64,000 nt of DNA from Candidatus Yonathbacteria bacterium (GCA_016215205.1 JACRKU010000024.1:4321-68320); one strand, 5' to 3'; numbered from the stretch's first letter, positions 25,414 through 50,837 are shown. The notes: generated from the letters alone by a model not told the origin. Numbers and translations: made by a program.

Positions 25414-25444
25414 TGTCTCCAACTATATCATAAAAAATCAAAAA

Positions 25445-26113: not shown

Positions 26114-26186
26114 GTAAAATACTGTAGCATAAAGAATCCCGCCAAGCTACTCAACGAAACCAAAATAGTGTACTATGCTCGTATAT

Positions 26187-30298: not shown

Positions 30299-30991
30299 AT
30301 GTATCAAAATGTAAATTATGGTATAGTGTCAATTATATCATTAAATATGAAACAAAGTACGCCAAAAAACAAGAAAAATGCAGTCAAAGCAGTACTTTTT
30401 GACCTAGATGGTGTTCTGGTAAACATGCCGGACGGGCACTACGAAGCACTGAATAAAGCACTCGGGCTTTTTGGTGTCTGTATAAACAAGGACGAGCATT
30501 ACGGTCATTTTAACGGGCTACCGACAAGAAAGAAGCTGGAAACACTTGAGCAACAAGGGCGCCTGCCAACTGGTTTGCGAGAATTCATCAATGATATAAA
30601 ACAGAAATACACAAAAGAAATTATTCCTCAGTACTGCGCGCCGGATTATTCAAAAATAATACTCCTACGCCATCTTAAGGAACAAGGATTTAAGCTTGGG
30701 TGTTGCTCAAATTCTACAAAAGAAACACTTCATTTGATGTTAAAATCCGCTCAACTTTTTGATTTTTTTGATATAATTATAGGGAATGACGAGGTTAAAA
30801 ACCCGAAACCGAGTCCCGAGATATATCAAGTAGCATTTGAAAAACTTTGTGTTTCTCCAGAAGAGTGTGTCGTTGTCGAGGATTCCCCCCATGGAATTGC
30901 GTCCGCGAAGGCAAGCGGCGCGGCGGTATACGAAGTTAAAGATGTCGATGATGTGACCTTATCTTTGTTTGAAAAAATTTTATCAAAATAA
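30299..30991 (+). CDS. HAD-superfamily hydrolase (HAD-IA phosphatase/beta-PGM-like)
   Basis: Motif I AVLFDLDGVLV, motif III K, motif IV EDSPHG. An alternative ATG at 30347 (MKQSTPK...) is equally possible. Confidence 0.7.
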   Translation: MYQNVNYGIVSIISLNMKQSTPKNKKNAVKAVLFDLDGVLVNMPDGHYEALNKALGLFGVCINKDEHYGHFNGLPTRKKLETLEQQGRLPTGLREFINDIKQKYTKEIIPQYCAPDYSKIILLRHLKEQGFKLGCCSNSTKETLHLMLKSAQLFDFFDIIIGNDEVKNPKPSPEIYQVAFEKLCVSPEECVVVEDSPHGIASAKASGAAVYEVKDVDDVTLSLFEKILSK

Positions 30992-31003
30992 CTAAACTAT
31001 ACT

Positions 31004-31750
31004 ATGCTCAATATTGTCATCCCTATGGCCGGAAAAGGCTCTCGTTTCCAAGAAGCTGGTTATGCGTTTCCTAAGCCACTCATTGATATCAATGGCGAAA
31101 CAATGATTGAAGTGGTTATCAGAAACCTAAAACCACAATGCGAACATAAGTTTATTTTTATTTGCCAGAGAGAACATTATGAAAAATATGACCTTCATAA
31201 TGTTCTAAAGAACGCAACTAACAATAATTTTGAAGTTGTTTTGCTGAACGACATCACACAAGGCGCAGCCTGCACTGTTTTGACCGCCGCACAATATATT
31301 AATAACGATGACGATTTAATTATCGCCAACTCAGACCAGTTCATCGAATTCGATATTAACGATTTCATCAAGGAATCGCGCGAGGATGGAAAAGATGGGC
31401 TCATTATGACGTTCAAAGCAAGCCACCCCAAATGGAGCTACGCTCGTGTTGACAGCACAGACAAAGTGGTTGAGGTTGCAGAAAAGAAGGTAATTTCAGA
31501 CAAGGCAACTGTAGGAATCTACTATATAAAAAATGGCAAGGATTTTGTGAAAGGGGCACAATCAATGATCCATAAAGACATCCGTCACAATAATGAATTC
31601 TACGTCTGTCCAGTGTATAATGAGCTCATTCTTGAAGGAAGGAAAATTTACATTTACAACATTGACGCTGGGAAAATGCATGGACTCGGAACACCTGAAG
31701 ACCTTGGTGCATTTCTTAGAAAAGTAGATGAGGGGAAAATAACCCAATAA
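31004..31750 (+). CDS. MobA/LicC-like sugar- or polyol-phosphate nucleotidyltransferase
   Basis: 248 aa; N-terminal IVIPMAGKGSRF nucleotide-binding loop and GT-A-like fold pattern of small nucleotidyltransferases (LicC/IspD/KpsU type). Confidence 0.6.
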   Translation: MLNIVIPMAGKGSRFQEAGYAFPKPLIDINGETMIEVVIRNLKPQCEHKFIFICQREHYEKYDLHNVLKNATNNNFEVVLLNDITQGAACTVLTAAQYINNDDDLIIANSDQFIEFDINDFIKESREDGKDGLIMTFKASHPKWSYARVDSTDKVVEVAEKKVISDKATVGIYYIKNGKDFVKGAQSMIHKDIRHNNEFYVCPVYNELILEGRKIYIYNIDAGKMHGLGTPEDLGAFLRKVDEGKITQ

Positions 31751-32610
31751 TGCAAACTATTACACACCGCGGGCTTGACCCATCAATAAAAGATTATTTC
31801 GTTGAAAGTTCGCGCGAGGCATTCAAGGATCAACTAACTCGCGGTTTTGGACTTGAGTTTGACCTTCAATTAACAAAAGATAATAGAATCATTATCCTGC
31901 ACGACAGCACACTTAGCCGTATTTCAAACGAGAAAGATGAACGAAAAATTTGCCAAGTTACCGAAGAGGAAATACTTTCTATGGAGTTTCGTGGTTGCCA
32001 CTTGGTCTCGTTCGATACACTACTAACACTTATTCAAGATAATCAGGCACCAAACGCTATTTCAGCAATTCACCTTAAGCAAAGAAATCAAGATAAGGAG
32101 ACGCTTGATATCATCCTTTCTTATTTGGAGCATCAAGATACAACGAAATTCCTAGTGTTTGATGTTACATTAGAGACTGCCAAATACATAAAAGGTAAGA
32201 ATAGTAAAATAAATCTCGCGCCATCAGTAGCACATCCTTTTGATATAGTACGTTACGGCAGTGCTGTTGGCGGTACTCTTATGGATTTAGAGACTGCACT
32301 TAAACATAAAGATCTTTTTAGTTGGGTGTGGCTTGACGAATGGGACATTACGGGCGAGAATAATTGCACAAAACTGTTTTATACTGAGGAAGTGTTTAAT
32401 AAGATTCGCAAGGCTAATATAAAGATTGGCCTTGTAACACCGGAGTTGCACGCTACCTCTCCTAATTTATTGGGTGGAGAAGGCCACCCAGATGCCGCGG
32501 ACAAAGACGGATTATTTGCACGAATTAAAGAAATAATTAAACTTAAACCCGATGCAATTTGTACAGATTACCCAGATTATGTTAATAATTTATCCAAACA
32601 GCGGGTATGA
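31750..32610 (+). CDS. Glycerophosphodiester phosphodiesterase (GDPD)-family protein
   Basis: 286 aa; HRG...E.S.EAF...GFGLEFDLQLTKDNRIIILHDSTLSR fits the GDPD catalytic N-terminal block (HR..ENT/E..D..T.DG..V..HD). TGA stop overlapping the next ATG (ATGA). Confidence 0.65.
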   Translation: MQTITHRGLDPSIKDYFVESSREAFKDQLTRGFGLEFDLQLTKDNRIIILHDSTLSRISNEKDERKICQVTEEEILSMEFRGCHLVSFDTLLTLIQDNQAPNAISAIHLKQRNQDKETLDIILSYLEHQDTTKFLVFDVTLETAKYIKGKNSKINLAPSVAHPFDIVRYGSAVGGTLMDLETALKHKDLFSWVWLDEWDITGENNCTKLFYTEEVFNKIRKANIKIGLVTPELHATSPNLLGGEGHPDAADKDGLFARIKEIIKLKPDAICTDYPDYVNNLSKQRV

Positions 32611-33677
32611 CATCAAATATATTTAAAATTCGAAATATAAGACAAATAGTAGTCAGGATTCGCAAACGACTATCGTCTTGGGAAATACTTAATTTTTTAC
32701 TTTTGCTTATTATTAAAATTAAAGAAGCAAGAGAAAATAGTTTCTACACAATACACAGAAGGCCGCAGAAATCTTCTGGCATTTCTACTTATGTAATAAA
32801 ATATAAAGAAAAACAAAATACAGCAATTGTTATGCATGGCCAAATTATTACTAAAAATAATTTTACACTGGAGACAGCTTCCCTCTATAAGAAAAATTTT
32901 CCTAACACAATTTTGATACTTTCTACGTGGCTAAACGAGGACAAGAAAACTATACAAAAGATACGGCAGGTTGGTTGGACCGTGGTACAAAATGAAAAAC
33001 CATCATACTCTGGGTACTACAATATAAATTATCAACTCACTAGTTCTAGTAACGGAATTCAGGCTGCTAAAAAATCAGGTGCTGAATATGTTCTAAAAAC
33101 TCGTACTGACCAACGCATTTATAATCCAAATGCTATTAGGCTACTCCATAGCTTCAGCAAACTATACCCCCCAAATAAAGATTCGCAACAAGCTAAACGC
33201 TTAATTATTCCAAATATTGATACATTCAAATATAGACCATACGGCATAGGAGACATGATTATGTTTGGACATATTGACGATATGTTGCTTTATTGGGGAA
33301 CAGAGCACGACATGAGATCGGCGCCCCTCAATAGATACCCGACAGTTATTGAAGATGCGCAAGCAAAAACGAGCGAGGTCTATCTTTGTACAGAATATAT
33401 GAAAAAGTTAAAACAACCACTAATCTGGACAATTGATAATTCCTGGAAAGTATTCGGGAAGTACTTTTGTATATTTGATTACTCTCTTTTGGATATGTTT
33501 TGGTATAAATATAAGGTGCATGAAGAATACAGATCACACTATTATAATTCAACTCACAGTCTTCAAATTATGCAATACTACGAATGGATTTCCTGCTACG
33601 AAAATACCTATAACCCGAATTCTCTTCCAGAAGAAATACTTAATGTGAAGATTGGCGACTCACTACCAAAAAGGTAA
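32607..33677 (+). CDS. Hypothetical protein in glycan cluster (no confident family; possibly LPS/glycan-modifying)
   Basis: 356 aa, AT-rich codon usage consistent with island neighbours, translationally coupled (ATGA) to the upstream gene; no diagnostic motif recognised. Confidence 0.55.
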   Translation: MTSNIFKIRNIRQIVVRIRKRLSSWEILNFLLLLIIKIKEARENSFYTIHRRPQKSSGISTYVIKYKEKQNTAIVMHGQIITKNNFTLETASLYKKNFPNTILILSTWLNEDKKTIQKIRQVGWTVVQNEKPSYSGYYNINYQLTSSSNGIQAAKKSGAEYVLKTRTDQRIYNPNAIRLLHSFSKLYPPNKDSQQAKRLIIPNIDTFKYRPYGIGDMIMFGHIDDMLLYWGTEHDMRSAPLNRYPTVIEDAQAKTSEVYLCTEYMKKLKQPLIWTIDNSWKVFGKYFCIFDYSLLDMFWYKYKVHEEYRSHYYNSTHSLQIMQYYEWISCYENTYNPNSLPEEILNVKIGDSLPKR

Positions 33678-33709: not shown

Positions 33710-34621
33710 ATGTTTACTACCCCAATACTACTCATCATATTCAACCGCCCCGACAAGGTTGAACGGCTAATTAACTCCTTGCGCAGTGTGAAACCTACGA
33801 AAGTATACGTTTCTGCAGATGGACCACGGGAGAATGTTGCTACAGACCATTCACGCTGTGATAGAGCGCGCGCGGTCGTTAGTCAGATTGACTGGCCATG
33901 TGAAGTTTTTACGAATTTCCATGAATATAATACGGGGGCAGATTTTGGTCCAGAAAAGGCGATTAATTGGTTTTTCGATAATGTTGATGAGGGGATTATT
34001 CTTGAGGATGACTGTATCGCGCATCCTGATTTCTTTCGCTTTGCGAAAGAAATGCTTTCGCGATATCGTGCCAATGATCAAGTAATGATGATTTCAGGCA
34101 ACAATTTTCAGAACGAAATTATACGAGGTGATGGGAGTTATTATTTCTCAAAATACCCGAGCACGTGGGGCTGGGCTTCATGGAGGCGGGCATGGATGCA
34201 TTACGACACAAGAATTTCTGGCTACAGAGAATTCACCGATAGAAATATACTGGACACTATATGCCAAAGCCCTGCTGAAAAAAAATACTGGACGAAATTC
34301 TTTGAGAAAATTAACAGCGGAGAACTCAATCATTGGGATATTAAATGGATATTTGCAGTTTGGAATAATAATGGCATTTCAATCACACCAAATGTAAATC
34401 TTGTTCAGAATATTGGCTTTGGAAACGACGCGACACACACCTTTACGCATGATGATACAATGGTAGTAAGAGCAGTTGAACTAGGTGAGATAACCCACCC
34501 ATCAACCACTATAGTAGATAAAAAGGCGGACGCATACCTTTTCGAGCATGTCTACAAATTCACTCTTATAAAAAGGTTTTTCTATCTTATAGAACTTATA
34601 AAAAGAAGACTTACTAGATGA
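33710..34621 (+). CDS. Putative GT-A-fold glycosyltransferase (GNT-I/HlpA-like)
   Basis: 303 aa; N-terminal PILLIIFNRPDKVERLINSL and EDDC (DxD-like) blocks recall GlcNAc-transferase-I/HlpA-like GT-A proteins. Tentative. Confidence 0.45.
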   Translation: MFTTPILLIIFNRPDKVERLINSLRSVKPTKVYVSADGPRENVATDHSRCDRARAVVSQIDWPCEVFTNFHEYNTGADFGPEKAINWFFDNVDEGIILEDDCIAHPDFFRFAKEMLSRYRANDQVMMISGNNFQNEIIRGDGSYYFSKYPSTWGWASWRRAWMHYDTRISGYREFTDRNILDTICQSPAEKKYWTKFFEKINSGELNHWDIKWIFAVWNNNGISITPNVNLVQNIGFGNDATHTFTHDDTMVVRAVELGEITHPSTTIVDKKADAYLFEHVYKFTLIKRFFYLIELIKRRLTR

Positions 34622-34662: not shown

Positions 34663-35181
34663 CTACTGACACCATCCATTGTTTCTTGTGAAGGCGACTG
34701 CGCAGAATGACCAATAGAGATCCCGCTCGCTCACAATCACATCGACAAATCCGAGATCAAGGAGTAACCGCTCCATATCTTTCGGATAAAACATGTGGAA
34801 GTGTTTTTTATTATTCTGAGGCAACCAGCAGACCATATCGGGATGCGGTAAGTAGAGGAAGAGAACCCCGTCAATTTCTTTCAAATGCTCCTTCCAATAC
34901 ATGAGCGCGCGCACATAGTCAGGAAGATGTTCGAGCGTATGACTGCTAAAAATAAAATCAAACTTTCCGGCGGGCAGGTTATATGCATCAAATTTGTCCG
35001 GAATAACAACATTAATTGCTTGAGCTCCGGGGAAAACCGAATTATCAAACCCGCCGATATCAAGACCCCTACCTTTACAAAATTCAACTGCGAAAGGCAT
35101 GATATATGAACACGCATTCCCTCTTTTCATATAGGATGGGTACCTGATGCCCTTGCAATATACTTCCAGTGCTTCTGCCAT
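34663..35181 (-). CDS. Class I SAM-dependent methyltransferase
   Basis: 172 aa; motif I LDIGGFDNS, motif post-I FDFIFSSHTLEHL. Confidence 0.7.
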   Translation of the reverse strand: MAEALEVYCKGIRYPSYMKRGNACSYIMPFAVEFCKGRGLDIGGFDNSVFPGAQAINVVIPDKFDAYNLPAGKFDFIFSSHTLEHLPDYVRALMYWKEHLKEIDGVLFLYLPHPDMVCWLPQNNKKHFHMFYPKDMERLLLDLGFVDVIVSERDLYWSFCAVAFTRNNGWCQ

Positions 35182-35220
35182 GACAACCTCCGTATAATTA
35201 GGTTACGAACAGATCCTCAG

Positions 35221-35733
35221 TTACACTACCACACTTATAGATTTTTGTAAATGAATCATCGCTTCGGAGGGTTTATTAGGTTGCACAAAAATTGATTTAC
35301 CCAATCCAAACTGCTCCCCCATATAAACATCGTCAACCGAGTCGGAAATGAGCAACGATTGAGTTTTGTCAAATTTATAAAGCTCCATAGCTTCACGAAG
35401 CATCCCATCTTTGGGTTTCCTGCACTCGCAGGTATTATTTTCATGAGGGCAGTATAAAATATCTAGAATTTCAATTCCCTTTTTATAAAATTCATCTTTC
35501 ATGTGCCTGTGAATTTTACGTACTGTTTCTTCTGTGTAAAGTCCCCTTGCGACCCCTCGTTGATTAGTTATAACAATAAACTCAAATCCTTCATTTTTTA
35601 ACTTTGAAACAACCCCAAATATACCCTCGTTAAAAATGAAATCTTCTACGCGCGTGATGTAATAGTGTTCTTCTGCTTTCTTATTTATCACACCATCACG
35701 ATCTAAAAAAGCAATTTTTTTACTTTTTCCCAT
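35221..35733 (-). CDS. gmhB: D-glycero-D-manno-heptose 1,7-bisphosphate phosphatase
   Basis: 170 aa; IAFLDRDGVINK (HAD motif I), ITNQ, and the GmhB-specific CxC-RKP zinc loop (CECRKPKDGML). Confidence 0.8.
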   Translation of the reverse strand: MGKSKKIAFLDRDGVINKKAEEHYYITRVEDFIFNEGIFGVVSKLKNEGFEFIVITNQRGVARGLYTEETVRKIHRHMKDEFYKKGIEILDILYCPHENNTCECRKPKDGMLREAMELYKFDKTQSLLISDSVDDVYMGEQFGLGKSIFVQPNKPSEAMIHLQKSISVVV

Positions 35734-36325
35734 TTTTTTCTATGATATGGTCAAAATAATCCTGGAAGTAACTGGTAAGTAAGTGCAGTATGGCATTATG
35801 AACACTTTCAACTACTGCATAAGCTCCAGACTTCGTCTTTACCACAATTTTTGCATCTGCCAATTCATTTAATTTACCGCCTGTAAATCCCGAAACTCCG
35901 ATGACCGGCACGTGGTGAGATTTTGCCAGTTCCACTGCTTTAATAATATTCAGAGAATTACCAGAACTGCTTATTGCAATAAGGCAATCTGTCTCCTGCA
36001 AGTAATTCTTAAGCGGACCGGCAAAGACCATGTCAAAACCAACATCATTTGCCCAAGCGGTAATCTCTGCCTCTGTTGAAGGAAGCCGGATTGCTTGGAA
36101 TCTTTTTATGCTGGAATCTAGATTGTGACTAAATACTGTCTTATTAAAATCACCGACCCAATGTGTTGCCATCGCCATTGACCCTCCGTTTCCAAAAACG
36201 TAGATTCTTCCATCGCGCTCATAGACTGACTGAATAATATGAATGGCTTTGGCTATCTCATCTTTGGGAAGATTCCTCATTTGTTCTATTACCTCGTCTG
36301 CAAAATTATCAATATATTTATACAT
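35720..36325 (-). CDS. gmhA: Sedoheptulose-7-phosphate isomerase (SIS domain)
   Basis: 201 aa; GNGGSMAMATHWVGDF and SSSGNS SIS-domain blocks as in GmhA. 14-nt overlap with gmhB. Confidence 0.8.
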   Translation of the reverse strand: MYKYIDNFADEVIEQMRNLPKDEIAKAIHIIQSVYERDGRIYVFGNGGSMAMATHWVGDFNKTVFSHNLDSSIKRFQAIRLPSTEAEITAWANDVGFDMVFAGPLKNYLQETDCLIAISSSGNSLNIIKAVELAKSHHVPVIGVSGFTGGKLNELADAKIVVKTKSGAYAVVESVHNAILHLLTSYFQDYFDHIIEKNGKK

Positions 36326-36327
36326 AA

Positions 36328-37335
36328 CTATAATATGTTAGATGAGTTAAATAAAACATCAATCCCAGATACGGTTAAACCAAAATGTACTCTTTTGAAA
36401 TCATTAAGTTTTAATCCCTTCGCTTTCTTCTCCAAAGCTTCTTGAATTTTTTCCTGTGTCCCTGGTTCTGCCATAAAAAGCAAGCACCCCCCGCCACCCG
36501 CGCCTAAAATCTTGCCGCCCCAAGCCCCCGCCTTTATGGCCGTCTCGTACAATGCATCGGTTGAATCATTTGTGACAGATGAAGCAAGGGTCTTTTTTCT
36601 CTGCCATGCTTCATGAAGCATCTCTCCCATACCTCGTAAATCTTGCGATAATAACTTATCCCTAAAAACAAGAACGGAGTCAGACATTTTTTTGTAGGTT
36701 TCAAAATTATCATCAATTTTTTTCTTTTGCCCAGAAAGGACGCTACTTGCCGATCTTGTCATCCCAGTAAAAAAAAGCATCATGTGGTTTTCAAACTTTG
36801 ACTTGAATTTAAAATCCATAAATACTGGCTCCACAGAAACGGTTCCATCCGTATTAAAAGTAATGACGTTTAATCCGCCATACGCTGCTGCATATTGATC
36901 CTGCTTACCGATTGGCTCTTTCAAAATATCTATTTCAAGTTCGCATGCAGCTTGTGCTGTTTCTTCTTTACTAATCTTTTTGCCTTTAATTGAATAAAGG
37001 GCTTTCATTAGGGCGACAGTAAAAGAAGAGGATGACCCGAGACCAGTTTTTGCAGGTAAATCAGCAAAAGAAGCGATTTCAATCCCTTTTGGGATTTCCA
37101 TTTTTACTAAGGCTTCTTTGAATCGAGTGTGGGATATCTCTAAAACATCTTCAACAGTTTCTGTTTTAGAATATTTCATAATGAAATTACCAAAGTTGCC
37201 GGTGTGGGCAACTATATAAACAAATTTATCTATGCTTGTAGACAAAACTCGCCCCGGGTAACGAGAATAAAATTCTTTTATATCGGTTCCGCCTCCAACA
37301 AAACTAATTCTAAGCGGGGCTCGTGTAATAATCAT
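36328..37335 (-). CDS. hddA: GHMP-family D-glycero-alpha-D-manno-heptose 7-phosphate kinase
   Basis: 335 aa; MIITRAPLRISFVGGGTD N-terminus and PAKTGLGSSSSF (GHMP motif II) as in HddA of the GDP-heptose pathway. Confidence 0.75.
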   Translation of the reverse strand: MIITRAPLRISFVGGGTDIKEFYSRYPGRVLSTSIDKFVYIVAHTGNFGNFIMKYSKTETVEDVLEISHTRFKEALVKMEIPKGIEIASFADLPAKTGLGSSSSFTVALMKALYSIKGKKISKEETAQAACELEIDILKEPIGKQDQYAAAYGGLNVITFNTDGTVSVEPVFMDFKFKSKFENHMMLFFTGMTRSASSVLSGQKKKIDDNFETYKKMSDSVLVFRDKLLSQDLRGMGEMLHEAWQRKKTLASSVTNDSTDALYETAIKAGAWGGKILGAGGGGCLLFMAEPGTQEKIQEALEKKAKGLKLNDFKRVHFGLTVSGIDVLFNSSNIL

Positions 37336-37370
37336 AATCTATGTAAGTGATTTAAGGCTTGTTTTACAAG

Positions 37371-38087
37371 CTAAATTGATATGCCTTGGGCATCATTATA
37401 GCTTTCTGGGGTGCCAATATCAAGTAAAATTTCATCCATTTTATATACATACATTTCCTCATTTTTGACAAGTAGATAAGGAAAAATGTCGTGTCCAAAA
37501 TCAAGGGGTGTTTTATCAATAGAATTTAGATACTTAAAAATTCTACTGTTTAAAACATAAATGCCTGCATTGGCATATTTACTAATAATCTTGTTAGATC
37601 TTGGCTTTTCTATAAATTTAAGTATCTTACCATTCTCGTTAAAACTTATGATGCCTTTGCCTTCTGGATGCTCCTCCACATAAGAAGCAATCGTTGCGAT
37701 ACCATTTTTTTCTTTATGTGCCGCTATCAATTTTCCATAGTTTATATTTGTCAGATTATCACCATACACAACCAAAAAATCATCCTCGCCCTTAAAAAAG
37801 GGGGCGTTTTTTTTCAAAGTGCCGGCACTTCCTAAGAGCTCCTTTTCAAAAGCTATCTGTATAGTAAGTCCGTTAAATCTATCTCTATTATTTTTTACAA
37901 ACTCGTTTATCTGTTTATGCAAGTAATGAGTATTAATTAAAATATCTCTGACACCGTATTTATACAGACTTTCTAAATGATAAGAGAGTAGCGGTTTGCC
38001 ATTAATCGGCAATAATGACTTTGGTGTTGTTTCCGTAAGTTGCCGCAGTCTTGTCCCTAAGCCAGCAGATAAAATTAATGCTTTCAT
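37371..38087 (-). CDS. hddC: D-glycero-alpha-D-manno-heptose 1-phosphate guanylyltransferase-like nucleotidyltransferase
   Basis: 238 aa; MKALILSAGLGTRLRQLT nucleotide-binding loop. It is positioned with gmhA/gmhB/hddA, consistent with HddC. Confidence 0.7.
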   Translation of the reverse strand: MKALILSAGLGTRLRQLTETTPKSLLPINGKPLLSYHLESLYKYGVRDILINTHYLHKQINEFVKNNRDRFNGLTIQIAFEKELLGSAGTLKKNAPFFKGEDDFLVVYGDNLTNINYGKLIAAHKEKNGIATIASYVEEHPEGKGIISFNENGKILKFIEKPRSNKIISKYANAGIYVLNSRIFKYLNSIDKTPLDFGHDIFPYLLVKNEEMYVYKMDEILLDIGTPESYNDAQGISI

Positions 38088-38102
38088 TTTTATTGTTTTA
38101 GT

Positions 38103-40022
38103 TTATCTTATTGCATTTACCATCATGTTCTCTGGTTTTTCATTTTTATAATGATGAAATGAAATAGACTTGTACTTATTTGCGTATTGTTTTGTTAACG
38201 CTGATAACGGGAGCAACTTTTCTCTTGGTAGAGCCGTGTTATAAAAAGGAGTGAAGCAAATCTCTGATGGATAATTTCTCTTCATCCAGTTTGCGTATGT
38301 GTCATAATCAGAAACACACGAGGGCTCCTTCTGATCTATTGTTGACAAATACACCTTATCCCACGTTGCACCATGTAGATCCCCAATACGCTTCTTCATC
38401 TCTTTAAGTCTCTCGCAATCAAAAATCATCATATGCGCTGTATAGGAGAGCGTATTATTGCTTGAGTACCCAAATAATTTTTTAAACGCTCTAAAATACT
38501 GGTCATGCCATTCCTCACTTTGCAAAAATACATCCTTTCCATTTTTAATAAACGAATGTGGTTTAATTAAAATAGTATCAGAATCTAAAATAAAATACTT
38601 TTTTTGTGTTACGAATATGTCTCCTGATAGCTTCAATAATTGCTGAAATATCCACCCGCTTCTATCCTTCCCGTTTACTACATAATTAATAAAATCTTTC
38701 CCGTACCCCAAAACGGAAACCTCATCTACAAAAACATAATTATGCTTTTCGCAAAATTCCAGCATTTCCTTATTTTTTTGAGAGACAATATAGAAATTAG
38801 AAATCTTGTGCTTCAGATTTTCCTTTATAGATTCTATAACTTCCCCAACTAATGTATAGTCTTTTGACACAGTAGGGATAACCACATCAATAATCTCTGA
38901 TTGGGTATGCAAATCAATCTCGTTAAATTCAACCTTAAAAACTTTTCTTATCTTCAAAAAAAGAAAGGCGGAAATGAGAAAAGGGTTCCATTCTCTTGAT
39001 TTGCATAAATTTATAAATACATCAACCTTTTTGATAAATGTAAAAATCATTCCAATACCAGCTTTAAATAAAATTGTTGTCCTTTTTTTTATTCTCATCA
39101 TAATCCCTTTTATGCTCGCGCGTTTTATATACTTTCTATTGTGAAATAATGTCTTATCTTTTTTACGGGCAGGCGTCAAAAAGGCTGCGTAATTTTCGTT
39201 AAGTATGTTTCCTTTTTTCTTTAACTCCTCAAAAAGATTTCGCGAGAAATCCTGACAATCAAACTTCAGGATGAAGTTTTGTGCTTCGGCATTAAACAAC
39301 GACAAGTGCTCTGACAAAATATCCTGCCAATTATAATTTATCTTTCCAGAATCAGATTCCCTAATATAATAGGATTTTTTGTATTGTACCCTGTGCAGAT
39401 ACGAAGCCTCCGGGCAAGTATAAGCAACAAGTCCGCTAGCGAGAAATCTCCATGCAAACCCCTGTGTATCAAAACCGTGTTCCGTGGGGTACCCGCCCGC
39501 AATAACAAAAGCTCTTTTAGTATGCATGAATGTTGAATAGAGAGGGCACATAATTCCATCCTTTTGCAAAAGGCTTTCAAAGGGTATTTTTTCTCCTGCA
39601 AAACTAAAAATATCTACGCGCTCAATATCATTAGTATTTCTCCCCCTAAACTTGATTGATTTATGAATACCCACCCCATCACATTTTTTCTCATTCATAA
39701 ATTTGAACATTCTGGAAAGAGTGTCCTGTGGGAGGATATCATCGCTATCAAGGCAAAAAATAATTTCTGCGCTTGTGTGACTGACAGCGGTGTTCCTTGT
39801 TGCTCCGCCACCTCTATTTTTATCATGGTAAAAAATCTTAATTTCAGAATGCTTATTTGCGAGCTCCTTCATCACCGTCTTTGTGCTATCAGTTGACCAA
39901 TCATCCACCATTATGATTTCAAAATTCCGCAGACCTTGAACATAGCAGGATTCCACTGCCTCCTCAAGAGTTTCAGCGCAATTGAAGCAGGGGATTACTA
40001 TTGAAATATCTTTTTTAGGCAT
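38103..40022 (-). CDS. Two-domain glycosyltransferase: N-terminal GT2 domain + uncharacterised C-terminal domain of about 350 aa
   Basis: Start moved to the ATG (MPKKDISIVIPCFN...). GT2 blocks IVIPCFN, MVDDWSTD, DSDD. The C-terminal half (from about aa 300) has no recognised motif. Confidence 0.7.
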   Translation of the reverse strand: MPKKDISIVIPCFNCAETLEEAVESCYVQGLRNFEIIMVDDWSTDSTKTVMKELANKHSEIKIFYHDKNRGGGATRNTAVSHTSAEIIFCLDSDDILPQDTLSRMFKFMNEKKCDGVGIHKSIKFRGRNTNDIERVDIFSFAGEKIPFESLLQKDGIMCPLYSTFMHTKRAFVIAGGYPTEHGFDTQGFAWRFLASGLVAYTCPEASYLHRVQYKKSYYIRESDSGKINYNWQDILSEHLSLFNAEAQNFILKFDCQDFSRNLFEELKKKGNILNENYAAFLTPARKKDKTLFHNRKYIKRASIKGIMMRIKKRTTILFKAGIGMIFTFIKKVDVFINLCKSREWNPFLISAFLFLKIRKVFKVEFNEIDLHTQSEIIDVVIPTVSKDYTLVGEVIESIKENLKHKISNFYIVSQKNKEMLEFCEKHNYVFVDEVSVLGYGKDFINYVVNGKDRSGWIFQQLLKLSGDIFVTQKKYFILDSDTILIKPHSFIKNGKDVFLQSEEWHDQYFRAFKKLFGYSSNNTLSYTAHMMIFDCERLKEMKKRIGDLHGATWDKVYLSTIDQKEPSCVSDYDTYANWMKRNYPSEICFTPFYNTALPREKLLPLSALTKQYANKYKSISFHHYKNEKPENMMVNAIR

Positions 40023-41064
40023 AATCTTTGTGAATACCAATAACACCTCCAAGACTTTCTAAATCCGCTTTTGTAATTATTTCTACCAATTCATCAAAGG
40101 TCACCTTTGGTTCCCATTTAAGAACTTTCTTTGCGCGAGAACTATCTCCTAGCACACTATTTACTTCATTCGGTCTATAGTATTTTGGGTTAATTCTTAA
40201 AATAATTTTCCCTGAGGAATCTTTAGCAACTTCTTTAAGCCCCTTTCCATGCCATGTTATTTTCATATCAAGAGCGTTTGCTGTTGCATTCACAAAATCC
40301 CTGACCGAATGGCTTTCACCGGTTGAAATAACAAAATCTTGCGGGGTTTTTTGCTGAAGCATCAACCACATAGCCTCAACATAATCTTTTGCATATCCCC
40401 AATCTCGCTTTGCGTCAAGATTACCAAGCTCAAACGAGTCCTGAAGGCCTAACTTTATTTTTACCATTGAATGAGTAATTTTCCTAGTTACAAAGTTTCT
40501 GCCTCGTCGGGGAGATTCGTGGTTGAAAAGAATCCCTGCGCAGATAAAAAAATTATGTCGTTTCCTATATTCAACAACGTAATCATTGTGAGCTTTTACC
40601 TTCGATTCTGCGTATGGACTTACTGGATTAAAAGGAGTTGTTTCTTTTTGTGGTGTTTCAAGCACATTCCCAAACATTTCAGAGGATGATGCCTGATATA
40701 TCCTTACCTGCGGATTTAAGTGAGTCGCCTCGCTAACTAATCTACCAAATCCATTATAATTGACCTCCATGGTTTCTTCTGGACACTGAAAAGAAACTCC
40801 GACTTGAGATTGCGCTCCTAGGTTATATATTTCATCTGGTCTTGATTCTTCTAGCGCTCGGATAATAGAATTATTATCCCTCATGTCACCGTAAATAATT
40901 TTTATCATGCGGTCCAAAGATAACCTCTCAATTCTCATTAATGGATCGGTGCTTGCTGGTCTCACAAGGCCATACACTTTATATCTCTTCTTTAACAAAA
41001 ATTCAGCAAGATAAGAGCCGTCCTGGCCGGTAATGCCTGTAATTAAGGCTCTTTTTTGTTTCAT
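40015..41064 (-). CDS. Second GDP-sugar 4,6-dehydratase paralogue (Gmd family; candidate GDP-manno-heptose 4,6-dehydratase DmhA-like)
   Basis: 349 aa; [29 protein letters not shown] (YxxxK), NHESPRRG. Clearly homologous to Gmd at 26187 but divergent (not a recent duplicate). Directly upstream of the GDP-heptose genes. Confidence 0.8.
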   Translation of the reverse strand: MKQKRALITGITGQDGSYLAEFLLKKRYKVYGLVRPASTDPLMRIERLSLDRMIKIIYGDMRDNNSIIRALEESRPDEIYNLGAQSQVGVSFQCPEETMEVNYNGFGRLVSEATHLNPQVRIYQASSSEMFGNVLETPQKETTPFNPVSPYAESKVKAHNDYVVEYRKRHNFFICAGILFNHESPRRGRNFVTRKITHSMVKIKLGLQDSFELGNLDAKRDWGYAKDYVEAMWLMLQQKTPQDFVISTGESHSVRDFVNATANALDMKITWHGKGLKEVAKDSSGKIILRINPKYYRPNEVNSVLGDSSRAKKVLKWEPKVTFDELVEIITKADLESLGGVIGIHKDYA

Positions 41065-41072
41065 GGGCTTGA

Positions 41073-41774
41073 TTATAGCATTTCAAAAACTATCAAGCCA
41101 ACGCTTTCTGGTGGCTTAACTTCTTTGTATACTCTCCATTTTCCACCCCTCAACAGTATAGGCTTTAGCTCTCTCGTCTTTTCTGTATTCCAATCGTGCA
41201 CCATAAGTATGGTTCCTTTATGGAAAAATGGCAGGAAATAATTATATTGCGAAAGAGTTTGATTACTATCCTCTGCGCCATCAAGAAAGGCGCAATCAAC
41301 ACGTACATATAATTTTATAATTTTATCAAAATCCTGCGCTTTGTCGCCAAACATAAATTCAACATGTTTTGCAACTACTGGTATTTTTTCTGCATAATAT
41401 TTCTTGGCCTTATTATAAAAATATGGATCATTTTCCAGTGTTACAAGATGACCCGACCCAACACTTTCAAAAGCTTTTGAAATAAAATAGGTGCTTCCGC
41501 CTCCAGTGTACGTACCTACCTCAAAACAGTGGCGTGGTTTCTTTTCTTTGATTACATCAAATAATACTTTTCTTTCTGCAATATACATTTGTCCAGGAAG
41601 AGCGAGTGAGCCTTCAAAGAAGAAACGTCTTTTTTTATCCCAAAATGACCTAATAAAAATAAGATAAATAAGCATTTCAAGCACGGTTAACTCATGAAAG
41701 TTGTGCGTAAGTTTTTCCTTGAAGTTTGGCGTTATTTTGAGCCCTTTGATTACAAATAATATTTTGTTTTTCAT
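41073..41774 (-). CDS. Class I SAM-dependent methyltransferase (TylF/MycF or Methyltransf_24-like sugar O-methyltransferase)
   Basis: 233 aa; CFEVGTYTGGGSTYF glycine-rich SAM loop and FLDGAED/HDW blocks reminiscent of macrocin-O-MTase-like enzymes. Confidence 0.55.
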   Translation of the reverse strand: MKNKILFVIKGLKITPNFKEKLTHNFHELTVLEMLIYLIFIRSFWDKKRRFFFEGSLALPGQMYIAERKVLFDVIKEKKPRHCFEVGTYTGGGSTYFISKAFESVGSGHLVTLENDPYFYNKAKKYYAEKIPVVAKHVEFMFGDKAQDFDKIIKLYVRVDCAFLDGAEDSNQTLSQYNYFLPFFHKGTILMVHDWNTEKTRELKPILLRGGKWRVYKEVKPPESVGLIVFEML

Positions 41775-41775
41775 A

Positions 41776-42666
41776 TTAATCTTTTGCGTTCCTTATCTTA
41801 TCAGTCCAATAGTCCATATACAATAGGGCCTGATTTGAACCCTTTTTTATGTTTTCAAATTTATTCTCAATATCCTTTTCACTAAGACCGTCTAGATCAT
41901 GCCAATCTTTGACCAACCAAAGAGGTATTCCCAGTTTTTCAAAATAATCTATTGTTACAGAACTTTTTACCACCGGTACAACGCCGAGATACAAAGCATC
42001 CCACGTCCTATGCCCCTCCACGCACGAACCAGGCGGTGAAGCAACAAATTTATAGGTTGCGAGCAAGCATAAATAATTATAAAAATTAAGCCATCTCTTA
42101 ACAGTCTCCGCTAGTGGATTACTTTTTAAAACATCCAGTGCCACTTGTCTTTCGTTTGTATTTGTTGACACAGTGAAACCGTAAAAAATACGGTTCATTT
42201 TAGTAATTTGTTTTTTAGTTACATTATTAAATATTGCGGGGATCCCCGTAACATACCAATGCTTATTTTCGATTCCTAGCGGAATAGGGACAACTCTTGG
42301 ATCAACTACTAAAACATTTATACCATACCATTTTAAAATTTTATCATCTGAAAGATCCAGTACTTCCTGACCTACAACAGCATCACCATTGTGGGTAATT
42401 AAAATGTAGGGATGTTTTATCTCTGGGTGAATCTCCGTAAGAAATTTTTTTATCTTACTATCACCAACAAAAACAATGTTTCTTTCTTTTATATCCGCAG
42501 GATTAAAAGTTTTAAGATCGTCATATACATAGTCTGCAAAGTTGCGAAAACCGTCACCCGTCACATATGGATAACTTGATGGCCGCGGGTTAGATGAATA
42601 CTTTATTAAAATACGCCCTGCAATGCGGTATATACGAAAGATGAGGTCAAGTAATTTCTGTATCAT
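41776..42666 (-). CDS. Hypothetical protein (candidate novel glycosyltransferase)
   Basis: 296 aa, no recognised family; translationally coupled within the operon. Confidence 0.55.
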   Translation of the reverse strand: MIQKLLDLIFRIYRIAGRILIKYSSNPRPSSYPYVTGDGFRNFADYVYDDLKTFNPADIKERNIVFVGDSKIKKFLTEIHPEIKHPYILITHNGDAVVGQEVLDLSDDKILKWYGINVLVVDPRVVPIPLGIENKHWYVTGIPAIFNNVTKKQITKMNRIFYGFTVSTNTNERQVALDVLKSNPLAETVKRWLNFYNYLCLLATYKFVASPPGSCVEGHRTWDALYLGVVPVVKSSVTIDYFEKLGIPLWLVKDWHDLDGLSEKDIENKFENIKKGSNQALLYMDYWTDKIRNAKD

Positions 42667-43553
42667 AGTCCTTTTATTAGTAATGTAACATAGCGTGCCA
42701 CTTTATTATAAAATATGACGACTCTAATTAGTTTTTTATAAATAAAAACAGGAATGTATTCTCTTATTCCTGTACGAAAAGCTAACTTCCAATGTGGTAT
42801 TTCAACCGTGGAAGCCACTGGTCTAAGAACTCTTTTGGAATAGAGATCTCTTGACTGAAGAGAGTAACCTTCACCACCGTCATCAATTGAGGCAAAGAGC
42901 TCATATTTTGGAATAGCGTAATGAATGGGCAACCACTGAACCTCTTCTGCTCCCTTTTCAAAATCAAGAGGTGTTTTTTTGGGATAGCTCCGCAATACTG
43001 GAGCGCCTCTTTTAATAATTTTTTTAAATAGGCTCGTTGCGAATATGCCAAGCATGCTTATTATGTAAGCTGAGTATTTTTCATTTATTCTATGATTTGC
43101 TTCTTGATCAAGAATAAAGCTGAAAATATTTTTTGATTCCTTCTTTTTTACATCACGATAAATTTCCAATGGTCGACCAGAAAACCACCAAGAATGAGTC
43201 AAATACTCTGCCCCCGTTGATTTCATCTCACTAATAATCTCCTTATACCTAGTAACATCCACCTGATTTACATGATCTTCAACCCAGAATAAGATGAAAT
43301 CTGTATCAATAATATCGATCATTTGTTTTGTATCATCGAACCACCCTTCTTTGCTATCAAGTGCATAAGAAATTAACTTTTGTTTCAAATTGCTGCGCAA
43401 AAAGATCATTGCATCTTCTTTAAATTCCCCCCTAATATTAATTACCCATTTCTGAGCCTCTATATCTTTAAATGAAAGGAAGGAGTCTTTCATTCTTAAA
43501 AACCGCTCTTCGTCGTTAACATAAAAATTAGCGAAGATGCTTAGAGTTGCCAT
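42663..43553 (-). CDS. Hypothetical protein (candidate novel glycosyltransferase or modifying enzyme)
   Basis: 296 aa, no recognised family; ATGA overlap with the downstream gene. Confidence 0.55.
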   Translation of the reverse strand: MATLSIFANFYVNDEERFLRMKDSFLSFKDIEAQKWVINIRGEFKEDAMIFLRSNLKQKLISYALDSKEGWFDDTKQMIDIIDTDFILFWVEDHVNQVDVTRYKEIISEMKSTGAEYLTHSWWFSGRPLEIYRDVKKKESKNIFSFILDQEANHRINEKYSAYIISMLGIFATSLFKKIIKRGAPVLRSYPKKTPLDFEKGAEEVQWLPIHYAIPKYELFASIDDGGEGYSLQSRDLYSKRVLRPVASTVEIPHWKLAFRTGIREYIPVFIYKKLIRVVIFYNKVARYVTLLIKGL

Positions 43554-43556
43554 ATT

Positions 43557-44702
43557 TTACCAGAAAGTCACCTGTGGGTTTATATTCTCAAGAATATCTT
43601 TTTTAATTTCTTCATCATAACCCCCTGCCCTCAAAATCACATTTACTGGACCCTTGTTTTTGAGTACCCTAGGCGATTCTATCACAAAATTAGTACCGTA
43701 CAATCTTTTACCTTGCTTAATTGGGCTATTATCTAAAATAGCGATAATTTTATCAGTCTTGAGCCCAAATTGAATTAAGGTCTGTGAAAATATATGCGCC
43801 CCAAATAAATAAATTGGTTGATCACTTTTTTCTATTAAACTATTCAGATCACTAATCATGTCGAGATGGTAGTTTATATAACCCATAAATACCTTCTTGT
43901 ACTCCTCGTACTTATTCTCTATTGAAGCTGGTGCAAGCGGAACATCAGTTTTTTCTGTAGCATAAAATATACTATGGGGGTCTCCGTAATATTGCTTTTC
44001 CAAAATAACAAAACCGTATTTCTCTAGTATGTATTCCGTAAAGTATTCAGTTAAAAAAACTGTATGCTCAAAATTTATGCAATTTGTCCAGTTTAATTTG
44101 AGCATCGGCATAAGGTTAGGAAATGTGAAGATATGTTTGTCTCCATTTTTCATAAACTTTGAGATATGCTCGATAAAAACTATCGGATTATATGTATGCT
44201 CAAATACATGCGAATGAATAATTGTATCAAAATGTTCATCTATGACAAATTTATCATCAAACCAAGCCTTGATAACTTTTATTTGCGGATCGTCTATGTG
44301 TTCAGGGTTCGGCTCAACTATGGTCCATTTTATATTTTGATCAAGCGCACGATAATTTCTAGCTATCTGGTCGTGGGCTCCCCCTACTTCTAATATATTT
44401 TTCGGTTTATATTTATGAAGAAATTGCGCGAAAGCAGTATAATGCTCTTTCCATATTTTACCAGTGCCATCATTGTGCTGATTCTTGTATAAGATTTCCA
44501 GAGGGATTAATTTTCGGAGCTGGATCAATCCAGTATCCTTACAAATGTCCCAAATCATATCAGCTACGATGTCCTCATCTTCTGGACTATCAACGCACCC
44601 CATAAACACAGGGAAATTCTCAAGTGTGTGCAAGTGCTCTAAATTATCCCCGCTGGCAAGCAAGCTTTTTGTTCTTTCATTAAACGTAGCGAGTTTTTTC
44701 AT
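43557..44702 (-). CDS. SAM-dependent methyltransferase, two-domain (possible sugar C-/O-methyltransferase, TylC3/NovU-like architecture)
   Basis: 381 aa; central ILEVGGAHDQ SAM loop and HSHVFEH block, with an extra C-terminal domain of about 150 aa as in C-methyltransferases. Confidence 0.5.
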   Translation of the reverse strand: MKKLATFNERTKSLLASGDNLEHLHTLENFPVFMGCVDSPEDEDIVADMIWDICKDTGLIQLRKLIPLEILYKNQHNDGTGKIWKEHYTAFAQFLHKYKPKNILEVGGAHDQIARNYRALDQNIKWTIVEPNPEHIDDPQIKVIKAWFDDKFVIDEHFDTIIHSHVFEHTYNPIVFIEHISKFMKNGDKHIFTFPNLMPMLKLNWTNCINFEHTVFLTEYFTEYILEKYGFVILEKQYYGDPHSIFYATEKTDVPLAPASIENKYEEYKKVFMGYINYHLDMISDLNSLIEKSDQPIYLFGAHIFSQTLIQFGLKTDKIIAILDNSPIKQGKRLYGTNFVIESPRVLKNKGPVNVILRAGGYDEEIKKDILENINPQVTFW

Positions 44703-44713
44703 ACACCGTTGTA

Positions 44714-45106
44714 CTACTTCTGCTTGTGTTCGCTTTCAATCTTTCCATCAGGTCTTTGTGTATCATCCTCAATACGAACGACATCATCAACTTCTGGTGT
44801 TGAAACTTCCTGAAGAACAATGTCCGTTATTGCAATAACTCTATGCTTTTTTGGTGGAGCAACATTGAAAAAATCTCCTGCCTTCATCTGGAATTTTTCC
44901 ACAACGCCCTTATCGTTTTCTAGCCAAACCTCTGCTTCACCATCTATAATATAATTGGTTTCTCTTTTTTTATTATGATACTGGAAGCTTGTTCTCGTGC
45001 CCGCATTTATATAAATTCGCTTGTAGCAGTAGGAATCATTTAACTCAAGCCAAATTTCCTTCCCCCATGGTTTTGAAACCTCCTTAAACGGATTATTCTT
45101 GTACAT
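44714..45106 (-). CDS. Small PMI-type cupin protein (possible sugar isomerase/epimerase)
   Basis: 130 aa; KPWGKEIW...TSFQYHNKKRETNYIIDGEAEV follows the cupin_2/mannose-6-P-isomerase motif (PWG...S.Q.H..R.E...i..G). Confidence 0.6.
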   Translation of the reverse strand: MYKNNPFKEVSKPWGKEIWLELNDSYCYKRIYINAGTRTSFQYHNKKRETNYIIDGEAEVWLENDKGVVEKFQMKAGDFFNVAPPKKHRVIAITDIVLQEVSTPEVDDVVRIEDDTQRPDGKIESEHKQK

Positions 45107-46112
45107 AATGATTAATTACATCTGATATAATGTTTATAATTGACTCCTTTATATCCTCACGCTTAGCCAGCTCTTCAATTAGAAACATGTACTCTGGTGA
45201 GGCAAAATGATAATGTCCAGCAATAACAGAGCATAACATTTTATTGTCAGGAGTATTTTTATTCATCCATTTTTTCCATTTGCCGCCTTGATAAACTTTT
45301 TCTAAGAAATTATCTAATGATATTCCGTAAACAAGACATTTTGTTATAACAATTTGTGTTTGAATAACGCCAAGCTGTGGAGCGATATTTACGGCGTCAA
45401 CAATTCCGCCCCTCATCTTAATTTCATCCTTAGTTAGGTAGTCGGCGTTGTGCTCCTTTAATTTGAGCCCCTTGCTCTTGAGCATTCTTGATACATTTTC
45501 AACAAATGGCTTATTAAACGACCCAGCTTGATTAATTTCTTTAATTACTGTGCCGGTCTGAACCACATAAAACTCTGGTTCACAAAAACTTTTAAAGAAA
45601 TCAATCTCCCTCTCCCATTCAGCTAAATTGGGAAGACTGTAATTTGTTCCTGTATTCTCATCGGTACCTATCTCTATTTGAATAGATGGTTTCAATGATA
45701 GACAATGTAAAATTGCTTTTTTAGTTGCCTCTAACCTTTCACTATTTGTTCCTTTGAAATGACAAAAATCTATGTGAATTAAGTCAAAGCCGTTCTTAAT
45801 ATCATCCTCGATTGTTGAGTATGTATCTGTAATATCATAATTACCATTAAAACCTGGGCCACAATGGTCTCGGCAGATTTTAACCTCAGCATTTGGATTT
45901 TGCTTCCTCACCTCTCCTACAAACTCCATATATTCTTTAGTCGTCCAGTTATTTACATACCCTCCAGAATAATCTACTTGGTTTTTAGATGCAATAAGCA
46001 TCAGTGGTTTCCGGTTAAAATGGGAATACCTGAACACCGCCTCGACAATCTCTGGGCTCATCGGCCCAAGCGCTAAGGAAACTAAATTTTTGTTGTTTTT
46101 AACAGGTGTCAT
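45093..46112 (-). CDS. GatZ/KbaZ-family protein (tagatose-bisphosphate-aldolase accessory / ketose-6-phosphate 4-epimerase-like)
   Basis: 339 aa; LMLIASKNQVDYSGGYVNNWTTKEY, KICRDHCGPGF, DLIHIDFCH align block-by-block with E. coli KbaZ ([36 protein letters not shown]). It is shorter than KbaZ by about 90 aa. Confidence 0.65.
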   Translation of the reverse strand: MTPVKNNKNLVSLALGPMSPEIVEAVFRYSHFNRKPLMLIASKNQVDYSGGYVNNWTTKEYMEFVGEVRKQNPNAEVKICRDHCGPGFNGNYDITDTYSTIEDDIKNGFDLIHIDFCHFKGTNSERLEATKKAILHCLSLKPSIQIEIGTDENTGTNYSLPNLAEWEREIDFFKSFCEPEFYVVQTGTVIKEINQAGSFNKPFVENVSRMLKSKGLKLKEHNADYLTKDEIKMRGGIVDAVNIAPQLGVIQTQIVITKCLVYGISLDNFLEKVYQGGKWKKWMNKNTPDNKMLCSVIAGHYHFASPEYMFLIEELAKREDIKESIINIISDVINHYVQE

Positions 46113-46130
46113 AATCGTGATATTTTATCA

Positions 46131-47147: not shown

Positions 47148-47182
47148 CTGCAATTCATTGTCTCGAAGTTCTCTGTTTTGCT

Positions 47183-48555: not shown

Positions 48556-48567
48556 AACAATCAATTA

Positions 48568-49071: not shown

Positions 49072-49215
49072 AAACGCGATTATAGACCATAAAGCTACGT
49101 TTTGCAATTTGAATTATTGCTCAAAATCTATGCGTAGCTATCTCAAGCCTACAGCAAACACCATATAATCAACAAGGGGAAAAGACATTAAGAAATGGTG
49201 AACTGGTACCTTATT

Positions 49216-50769: not shown

Positions 50770-50837
50770 TTGCAAGGTTTCTTTATCTTCCCCATTATAG
50801 CTGAAATTAGAGGAAATAGGATATAATATAAGTTCCT

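Follow-up and report, generated by a model that had tools for sequence, protein, structure and literature searches.

GDP-activated heptoses of Aneurinibacillus, Campylobacter and Burkholderia are made by a known pathway in which four folds, a SIS isomerase, a GHMP kinase (HddA or WcbL), a HAD-IIIA phosphatase and an RmlA-fold nucleotidyltransferase (NTase; HddC), are encoded in one operon within a polysaccharide locus. In Campylobacter capsules, GDP-heptose is dehydrated to GDP-6-deoxy-4-keto-heptose, which is then reduced and O-methylated. The dehydratases of this step, C. jejuni DmhA, WcbK and DdahA, are treated as equivalent, with 89-98% identity among 19 serotype enzymes (PMC3417588, PMC7949155, PMC10680097). 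DdahA acts on GDP-mannose only poorly (PMC7949155), which indicates that heptose dehydratases and GDP-mannose 4,6-dehydratases (Gmds) are specialised types; no report of a true Gmd assayed on GDP-heptose was found in the literature, and a dehydratase review has nothing on heptose. Here, we describe a stretch of 64,000 nucleotides from a Candidatus Yonathbacteria bacterium (GCA_016215205.1, JACRKU010000024.1:4321-68320; hereafter the window, with positions counted from its first letter), which carries a set of heptose activation genes (35221-38087) and, 1.9 kb away, a second Gmd gene (Gmd2, 40015-41064) in addition to that of the fucose pathway (Gmd1, 26175-27269).

The gene content and its distribution among related genomes are best accounted for, with a probability of roughly 70%, by two functionally independent modules that stand side by side in one co-directional operon of a hypervariable Wzx/Wzy-type locus. 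One is a heptose activation cassette of the HddA type; the other is built around Gmd2 and would supply a deoxyhexose. Seventeen co-directional genes, spaced by -14 to +39 nt, run from 49107 to 34663, and Wzx lies ahead of them across a 108-nt gap. The tight gaps are consistent with one long operon. A scan for promoter-like sequences gave 58 matches compared with 60.4 in shuffles, which is no better than chance and yields no operon boundaries. The window proteins match the NCBI entries MBI50782xx with full identity, and these entries belong to a Candidatus Yonathbacteria metagenome-assembled genome of the Paceibacteria within the candidate phyla radiation (CPR; Patescibacteria). Their PGAP names are generic only ('GHMP kinase', 'SIS domain-containing protein', 'HAD-IIIA family hydrolase', 'nucleotidyltransferase family protein' and 'GDP-mannose 4,6-dehydratase').

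A predicted heptose activation cassette of four genes

The analysis of the open reading frames (ORFs) was performed with Pfam and NCBIfam. The E-values across the described ORFs ranged from 1e-9 to 1e-126, far past chance, and the positions and domains given by a first-pass annotation, made from the sequence alone, were all borne out, with the ORFs on the minus strand. The four cassette genes lie on a single strand with gaps of -14 to +35 nt. The gene at 35221-35733 encodes a GmhB-like HAD-IIIA heptose 1,7-bisphosphate 7-phosphatase (NCBIfam PRK08942, 149 bits; cutoff of 178), which scored above the TIGR01656 and TIGR01662 cutoffs (HAD-IIIA, histidinol-phosphatase domain). The diagnostic motifs reported for the block could be read in the translations, and in this protein they comprise DRDGV, TNQ, the CPH..CECRKP zinc loop and SDSVDD. 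The gene at 35720-36325 encodes a GmhA-like SIS-domain sedoheptulose-7-phosphate isomerase of a CPR subtype (TIGR00441, 93 bits; cutoff of 209). Its top PDB matches were all phosphoheptose isomerases (52-78 bits), and it is 65-84% identical among the CPR cassettes. GNGGS and SSSGNS are visible in the translation, and both catalytic histidines and the SSSGNS phosphate loop are kept in the alignment with C. jejuni GmhA.

The gene at 36328-37335 encodes a GHMP kinase of the HddA/WcbL heptose kinase type, for which HddA was the top NCBIfam match (169 bits; cutoff of 600). The nearest solved structures were the heptose kinases 3k85 from Bacteroides (159 bits), Burkholderia WcbL (138-139 bits) and 4n3o (137 bits), and the next class in the PDB was fucokinase, at 59 bits. 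The GHMP motifs II and III are present as PAKTGLGSSSS and GAGGGG. The gene at 37371-38087 encodes an RmlA-fold sugar-1-phosphate NTase (Pfam NTP_transferase, 150 bits) with a GLGTRL loop, which is predicted to take the role of HddC. The four genes make a credible case, on their sequences, for a complete HddA-type (alpha-anomer) heptose activation cassette inside the polysaccharide locus, and this part of the first-pass claim of a complete GDP-heptose pathway stood; the GDP moiety is considered below.

The cassette would be a divergent member of the known GDP-heptose pathway. It shares with that pathway the four folds in one operon, the placement within a polysaccharide locus, and a kinase whose nearest solved relatives are HddA and WcbL. 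It differs in that its proteins score under the equivalog cutoffs, GmhA carries glutamate to aspartate and glutamine to glutamate changes, the NTase is far from crystallised HddC, the host is a CPR bacterium, and there is no dedicated heptose-modifying short-chain dehydrogenase/reductase (SDR). In the proposed route, GmhA would turn sedoheptulose-7-phosphate into the 7-phosphate of D-glycero-D-manno-heptose, the GHMP kinase would yield the alpha-1,7-bisphosphate, and GmhB would take off the 7-phosphate before activation by the NTase. The activated heptose could then serve as the donor for a glycosyltransferase of the locus.

A small class I S-adenosylmethionine (SAM) methyltransferase (MT23; 34663-35181, minus strand; Pfam Methyltransf_23, 35.5 bits) is the last gene of the array and may belong to the same module. 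It is 95% identical in the closest related locus (L002), where it also immediately follows GmhB. A 65% identical homologue is present in a cassette-free locus (L006), and MT23 is thus not strictly tied to the cassette. MT23 is a candidate O-methyltransferase for the heptose or for another residue. With methyltransferases flanking the cassette, an O-methylated heptose remains plausible; the 6-deoxy part of the decoration predicted in the first-pass annotation found no such support, as set out below.

A total of 582 relatives of the HddA-type kinase were found in GTDB genomes, with many in CPR and DPANN. Other CPR genomes also show the order NTase-HddA-GmhA-GmhB, at 50-84% identity for the NTase, kinase and isomerase genes, and the gene order of the window is common to L002, L011, L012, L014, L015 and L017. 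As such cassettes are common in CPR genomes, and heptose nucleotide-sugar biosynthesis has previously been reported in Paceibacteria (PMC9166423), the gene context is less unexpected than first proposed. No new kind of enzyme or pathway is revealed here; the cassette is one of a common kind that had been annotated only generically.

Among the CPR loci L010-L015 and L017 (at ~7.5-13.3 kb in each), a frequent form of the cassette is one in which a GalE-type SDR is followed by the NTase, a methyltransferase, HddA, GmhA and GmhB. The methyltransferase between the NTase and HddA in these cassettes makes a methylated heptose a recurring theme, and the GalE-type partner raises the question of the nucleotide used. 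In L011, GmhB is fused to a GT1 glycosyltransferase (579 aa, confirmed by Pfam), and the GmhB ORFs of L012 and L014 (568-577 aa) look like the same fusion. L010 and L015 instead have a GT1-family gene of its own close by. In the CPR cassettes, the GT1 partner is a candidate for a dedicated heptosyltransferase.

The second Gmd and its conserved neighbours

Gmd2 (40015-41064, minus strand) is a CPR-type GDP-mannose 4,6-dehydratase, with 416 bits against Pfam GDP_Man_Dehyd and 421.3 bits against the Gmd model TIGR01472 (cutoff of 415), on which Gmd1 scored 592.8 bits. The two proteins are ~49-51% identical, in agreement with the first-pass description of Gmd2 as homologous to, yet divergent from, the fucose-pathway enzyme. 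Against the PDB, Gmd2 matched the Aquifex, human, E. coli, Arabidopsis and Pseudomonas Gmds with 286-371 bits and Rmd with 106 bits. The match to the C. jejuni GDP-heptose 4,6-dehydratase (7us5), on which the comparison with heptose dehydratases rests, was 98 bits for Gmd2 and 131 bits for Gmd1. The opposite pattern was seen in a classical heptose locus from Chloroflexi (L062), in which an SDR of the DdahA/Rmd clade adjoins a second SDR and a heptose cassette. That SDR scored 250 bits against Rmd, 211 against 7us5, 124-156 against the Gmds, and 167 on the Gmd model.

In an alignment with Gmd1 and 17 orthologues, Gmd2 keeps all of the Gmd motifs, including SSSEMFG (catalytic Ser/Thr-Glu), SPYAESK (YxxxK) and the substrate loop NHESPRRG. 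Where the cassette-free orthologues share a conserved residue, there is no position at which the proteins of the window and L002, both from cassette-bearing loci, jointly depart from it. No C4 reductase similar to DmhB, WcaG or DdahC and no C3/C5 epimerase was found next to Gmd2 or the cassette. The first-pass annotation had taken Gmd2 for a GDP-heptose dehydratase of the DmhA/WcbK type and had named clustering with bona fide Gmds as the outcome that would speak against this; it is with these that Gmd2 clusters by family model, solved structures, residues and gene context. On this evidence, Gmd2 is an ordinary GDP-mannose dehydratase of its lineage and not of the DmhA/WcbK type. It was classed as a Gmd because none of three defining features of the latter, namely similarity, co-location with heptose genes and a partner reductase or epimerase, was found.

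Gmd2 shares with DmhA, WcbK and DdahA (C. jejuni 7us5; Yersinia pseudotuberculosis DmhA) the extended SDR fold acting on a GDP-sugar, and in the window it lies near heptose genes. The DdahA clade, in contrast, groups with Rmd. Gmd2 has no partner reductase, and its orthologues are unlinked to heptose genes. The nearest solved relatives of Gmd2 are the Gmds themselves (E. coli 1db3, human 1t2a, Aquifex 2z1m and P. aeruginosa 1rpn), with which it has the signature motifs in common. It differs from them as a short form that lacks a 5-residue insertion of the Gmd1-type enzymes, as an additional copy next to a canonical gmd-nudix-fcl set, and in having a Methyltransf_24 protein and a GT2-DUF6492 protein as partners instead of an adjacent Fcl or Rmd.

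Gmd2 was described in the first-pass annotation as directly upstream of the heptose block; a 1.9 kb gene encoding a GT2 glycosyltransferase fused to DUF6492 intervenes (38103-40022, minus strand; 639 aa on the Logan contig L001; Pfam matches of 112 bits to Glycos_transf_2 and 42 bits to DUF6492). This gene overlaps the Gmd2 stop codon by 8 nt and adjoins Gmd2 in L002-L006, where it is 65-78% identical. On the other side lies a Methyltransf_24 methyltransferase (MT24; 41073-41774, minus strand; Pfam, 41 bits), for which a PDB sequence search gave no homologue. Its orthologues adjoin Gmd2 in L002-L007 and also match Methyltransf_3, with a weak RMNT_CmcI match in L007. Two paralogous 296-aa proteins follow (u296a, 41776-42666, and u296b, 42663-43553, both on the minus strand), which are probably glycosyltransferase-like. 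The first has a weak RXYLT1_C match and stands beside MT24 in L002-L005, with 78-82% conservation. A C-methyltransferase-like protein (43557-44702, minus strand; Pfam Methyltransf_23 with a Methyltransf_14 C-terminal domain) is encoded further upstream in the operon. A 54% identical orthologue is present in L002, and the gene is absent from the Gmd2-bearing L003 and L005.

Relatives of Gmd2 with 56-87% identity are numerous, and all that bear a name are from CPR. Seven distinct orthologue loci were sampled (L004 duplicates L003, which is from GCA_964355595.1), and the cassette-free genomes were inspected over 8-10 kb on each side. The arrangement of a 296-aa protein, Methyltransf_24, Gmd2 and GT2 (with or without DUF6492) was kept in five of the seven (L002, L003, L005, L006 and L007), and heptose genes accompanied Gmd2 in one, the closest relative L002. 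In L009, an Fcl-like gene lies two genes downstream. In the converse survey of heptose kinases in GTDB, 3 of 80 other loci had a true Gmd no more than 6 kb from the kinase, one of these Gmds belonging to a fucose module, and in none was it adjacent. Adjacent SDRs of the Rmd/DdahA clade were present in two of the 80 loci, and a GalE-type SDR in seven CPR-type cassettes.

The genes from ~43553 to 38103 (the 296-aa proteins, Methyltransf_24, Gmd2 and GT2 with DUF6492) therefore form a conserved CPR module, in which Gmd2 would convert GDP-mannose to GDP-4-keto-6-deoxymannose. The product is predicted to be a 6-deoxyhexose of the fucose or rhamnose type, possibly methylated at oxygen or carbon, and transferred to its acceptor by the translationally coupled GT2-DUF6492 protein. 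Intrinsic reductase activity is known for some Gmds. The 4-keto intermediate may thus be finished by Gmd2 itself, by Fcl (27728-28657), or after C-methylation by the protein encoded at 43557, which by analogy could act on the 4-keto product. A similar gene content, with a Gmd, SAM methyltransferases including one that is C-methyltransferase-like, and an Fcl-type enzyme in one locus, is found in the GDP-beta-D-virenose pathway of Coxiella burnetii (PMC3204966) and in pathways to methyl-rhamnose and methyl-fucose glycans. The likeness is one of gene content only, and L003 and L005 keep Gmd2 and lack the C-methyltransferase.

A doubtful alternative, with a small but real chance of being correct, is that Gmd2 is a redundant isozyme of Gmd1 that feeds the same GDP-L-fucose pool through Fcl and has no distinct product. 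The locus has a single Fcl and no Rmd-like reductase, and the associations with GT11 and with DUF6492/GT11 point to fucose; in L006 and L007, DUF6492 is fused to or stands beside GT11 fucosyltransferase-family genes. Simple redundancy is opposed by the conservation of Gmd1 and Gmd2 together in related genomes, at 80-87% identity. Gmd2 also has its own conserved methyltransferase and glycosyltransferase partners, and a C-methyltransferase-like gene lies within its operon.

Nucleotide of the cassette and possible links to Gmd2

The NTase scored 99 bits on the HddC model (cutoff of 300). Its best match among solved structures was a UGPase (109 bits), followed by GMPPB-type guanylyltransferases (87-96 bits), compared with 56-58 bits for the crystallised Yersinia HddC, and on NCBIfam the archaeal GlmU-type and RmlA-long models outscored HddC. 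The cassette NTases of the DdahA-type locus of Chloroflexi, of Bacteroidales and of Clostridium reached only 87-116 bits on the HddC model. As these NTases of classical cassettes fall short as well, the model was judged to be narrow and its cutoff uninformative for the NTase of the window. In RmlA, a glutamine at one position reads the pyrimidine base. The RmlA-like enzyme of the window has glutamine there, whereas the cassette NTase and the NTases of the classical loci, including the one linked to DdahA, have glutamate. This glutamate gives modest, heuristic support for GTP, which is probably the nucleotide used, and the 'GDP' of GDP-heptose is to be read with this qualification.

The scores could also reflect a CPR-specific variant of the NDP-alpha-heptose pathway, in which the nucleotide would be, for example, UDP, dTDP or CDP, or the activated sugar a related one. 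Such a variant is unlikely. The closeness to UGPase and to the GlmU-type and RmlA-long models would fit it, as would the GalE-type (UDP-hexose 4-epimerase-like) SDR immediately upstream of the NTase in seven CPR-type cassettes, and NDP-heptoses other than ADP- and GDP-heptose occur in nature (PMC11461863, PMC11573728). Those known non-GDP heptoses, however, appear to come from the beta-anomer HldE route and not from GHMP kinases. Moreover, the GMPPB-type guanylyltransferases are nearly as close to the NTase as UGPase, the cassette NTases of classical loci score equally low on the HddC model, and the glutamate is common to them.

The first-pass annotation proposed a single pathway, in which Gmd2, heptose-specific or with dual specificity, would convert GDP-heptose to GDP-6-deoxy-4-keto-heptose for reduction and O-methylation, as in Campylobacter capsules. 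Gmd2 and the cassette do share an operon in the window and L002, and on sequence alone a shared pathway is possible; the window cassette, unlike many others, has no SDR of its own, methyltransferases flank it, and the DdahA fold accepts both C6 and C7 substrates (PMC7949155). The proposal is nevertheless improbable, as Gmd2 resembles true Gmds far more than it does the characterised heptose dehydratase, shows no cassette-specific substitution, and persists with its MT24 and GT2 partners in L003-L007 without heptose genes nearby. Heptose kinases do not regularly have a true Gmd as a neighbour, and no reductase similar to DmhB, WcaG or DdahC was found in the locus. The SDRs at 51663 and 53484, put forward as reductases for the heptose, were ruled out as an RmlB-like dehydratase homologue beside an RmlA-like gene and a GalE-like epimerase, respectively. 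A 6-deoxyheptose product is thus unsupported. Very unlikely, too, is the recruitment of a Gmd2 of the true Gmd clade in cassette-bearing strains to dehydrate GDP-heptose as well, giving a 6-deoxy (and methylated) heptose on the CPR surface, by a route that would be convergent with DmhA/WcbK and phylogenetically independent of it.

The two-module reading is preferred, and several points weigh against it. All four cassette proteins score under the curated equivalog cutoffs, the nearest solved relatives of the NTase are of the UGPase and GMPPB types and not HddC, and in GmhA a catalytic or metal-binding glutamate is replaced by aspartate (D59), with glutamine replaced by glutamate at E173. The margin of Gmd2 over the Gmd cutoff is narrow, and there is no adjacent 4-reductase. 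The heptose dehydratase comparison covers 7us5 from C. jejuni, and the cassette-free state of the orthologue genomes refers to the inspected flanks of 8-10 kb. Finally, Gmd2 and the cassette occur in one operon in two related genomes.

Setting of the surface-glycan locus

The GC content is 35-40% at ~28-54 kb compared with 45-50% in the flanks. This low-GC island, together with gmd1-nudix-fcl and a Wzy_C/TPR gene on its left, is a Wzx/Wzy-type surface-glycan locus at ~23.4-54.4 kb with 36-40% GC, bounded by SecA-MurB on one side and by an LTD/PKD surface protein and a TrwB-like ATPase on the other. The conserved left edge is formed by a polymerase- or ligase-like membrane protein (23446-25422, minus strand; Pfam Wzy_C, 68 bits), and Wzx is encoded at 49216-50775 (minus strand; Pfam Polysacc_synt and MatE). 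Within the locus, nucleotidyltransferases and methyltransferase-like genes number at least five each. CPR bacteria are generally thought to lack an outer membrane.

Towards its ends the locus shows 85-94% identity with L003 and L005, and its centre is mosaic. In a comparison of the window with L003, L005 and L007, Wzx was just 42% identical in the swapped centre. The heptose cassette and the divergently oriented WavE and GDPD genes are present in the window and L002, with no homologue detected in L003 and L005. The presence or absence of the cassette within a mosaic centre indicates that it acts as a module that can be exchanged in a serotype-like locus, and the whole resembles an O-antigen-style serotype locus in CPR. 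If the two-module reading is correct, a lineage with very small genomes devotes more than 25 kb to such a locus, which would comprise a fucose pathway, a Gmd-dependent module for a methylated deoxyhexose, a heptose cassette, an RmlA/RmlB-like route, an unusual sugar-activation block and methyltransferases. The exchange of modules between conserved flanks in related strains suggests that the CPR cell surface is under strong diversifying selection, for instance through host attachment or phage pressure. The locus also offers defined enzymes for expression, from which the composition of CPR glycans could be learned.

The fucose module on the plus strand comprises Gmd1, a Nudix protein similar to GDP-mannose mannosyl hydrolase (27271-27744) and Fcl (501 bits; equivalog cutoff of 500), with a GT11 fucosyltransferase-family gene on the minus strand (28664-29524). 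In L005, Fcl and the Nudix protein are 85-87% identical and GT11 is 72% identical, and the start of a 364-aa Gmd1-like gene comes next, at the locus edge. Between the Wzy-like gene and gmd1 lies a 222-aa gene (25445-26113, minus strand) that is RfaE-domain-II-like, and the N-terminus of its protein resembles a remnant of a PMI-type cupin (RPWG...SLQSHSRRTEWH). A role of this gene in a beta-heptose route was set aside; a homologue was present near an HddA kinase in one of 89 loci (L023), and no PfkB-type heptose kinase was found among the locus genes scanned.

At the right end, an RmlB-like SDR (51663-52607, minus strand; TIGR01181, 179 bits; PDB dTDP-glucose 4,6-dehydratase, 137 bits), an RmlA-like NTase (52664-53473, plus strand; TIGR01207, 304 bits) and a GalE-like SDR (53484-54362, minus strand; PDB UDP-glucose 4-epimerase, 112 bits) are predicted to form a separate NDP-glucose route. 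In the cassette-free L003 and L005, identity is 85% for the RmlB-like gene and 94% for the RmlA-like gene.

Divergent from the cassette, the plus-strand genes at 30299-33677 encode a beta-phosphoglucomutase-family HAD, an NTP-transferase, a GDPD-family phosphodiesterase-like protein and a WavE-family protein (32607-33677; Pfam WavE, 45 bits), and may add a phospho-substituent. No homologue of the first two was detected in L003 or L005, and the L002 contig ends short of them. A 303-aa protein follows (33710-34621, plus strand). This protein and the WavE protein are 81-85% conserved in the cassette-bearing L002; in the cassette-free L003 and L005, the 303-aa protein is only 43% identical and WavE is absent. 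We infer that both are candidate heptose transferases.

A further block of six genes (43557-49107, minus strand) encodes a KdsC-like HAD phosphatase, an AroE-like shikimate-dehydrogenase homologue (245 bits; cutoff of 252), an NTP_transf_3 fusion, a weakly GatZ/KbaZ-like protein, a small PMI-type cupin and the C-methyltransferase-like protein. Its gene content resembles that of a pathway for making an unusual sugar, alditol or cyclitol in NDP-activated form, and of the whole locus this is perhaps the part that is understood least. The block is absent from L003 and L005 and partial in L002. On the Logan contig L001, which is otherwise 99.99% identical to the window, the NTP_transf_3 gene is intact (531 aa; 46131-47725, minus strand). 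In the window, a 1-nt deletion in a T7 homopolymer at ~47195-47200 splits it into 47183-47725 and 46131-47153, which could be either an assembly error or the result of a slippage-prone tract.

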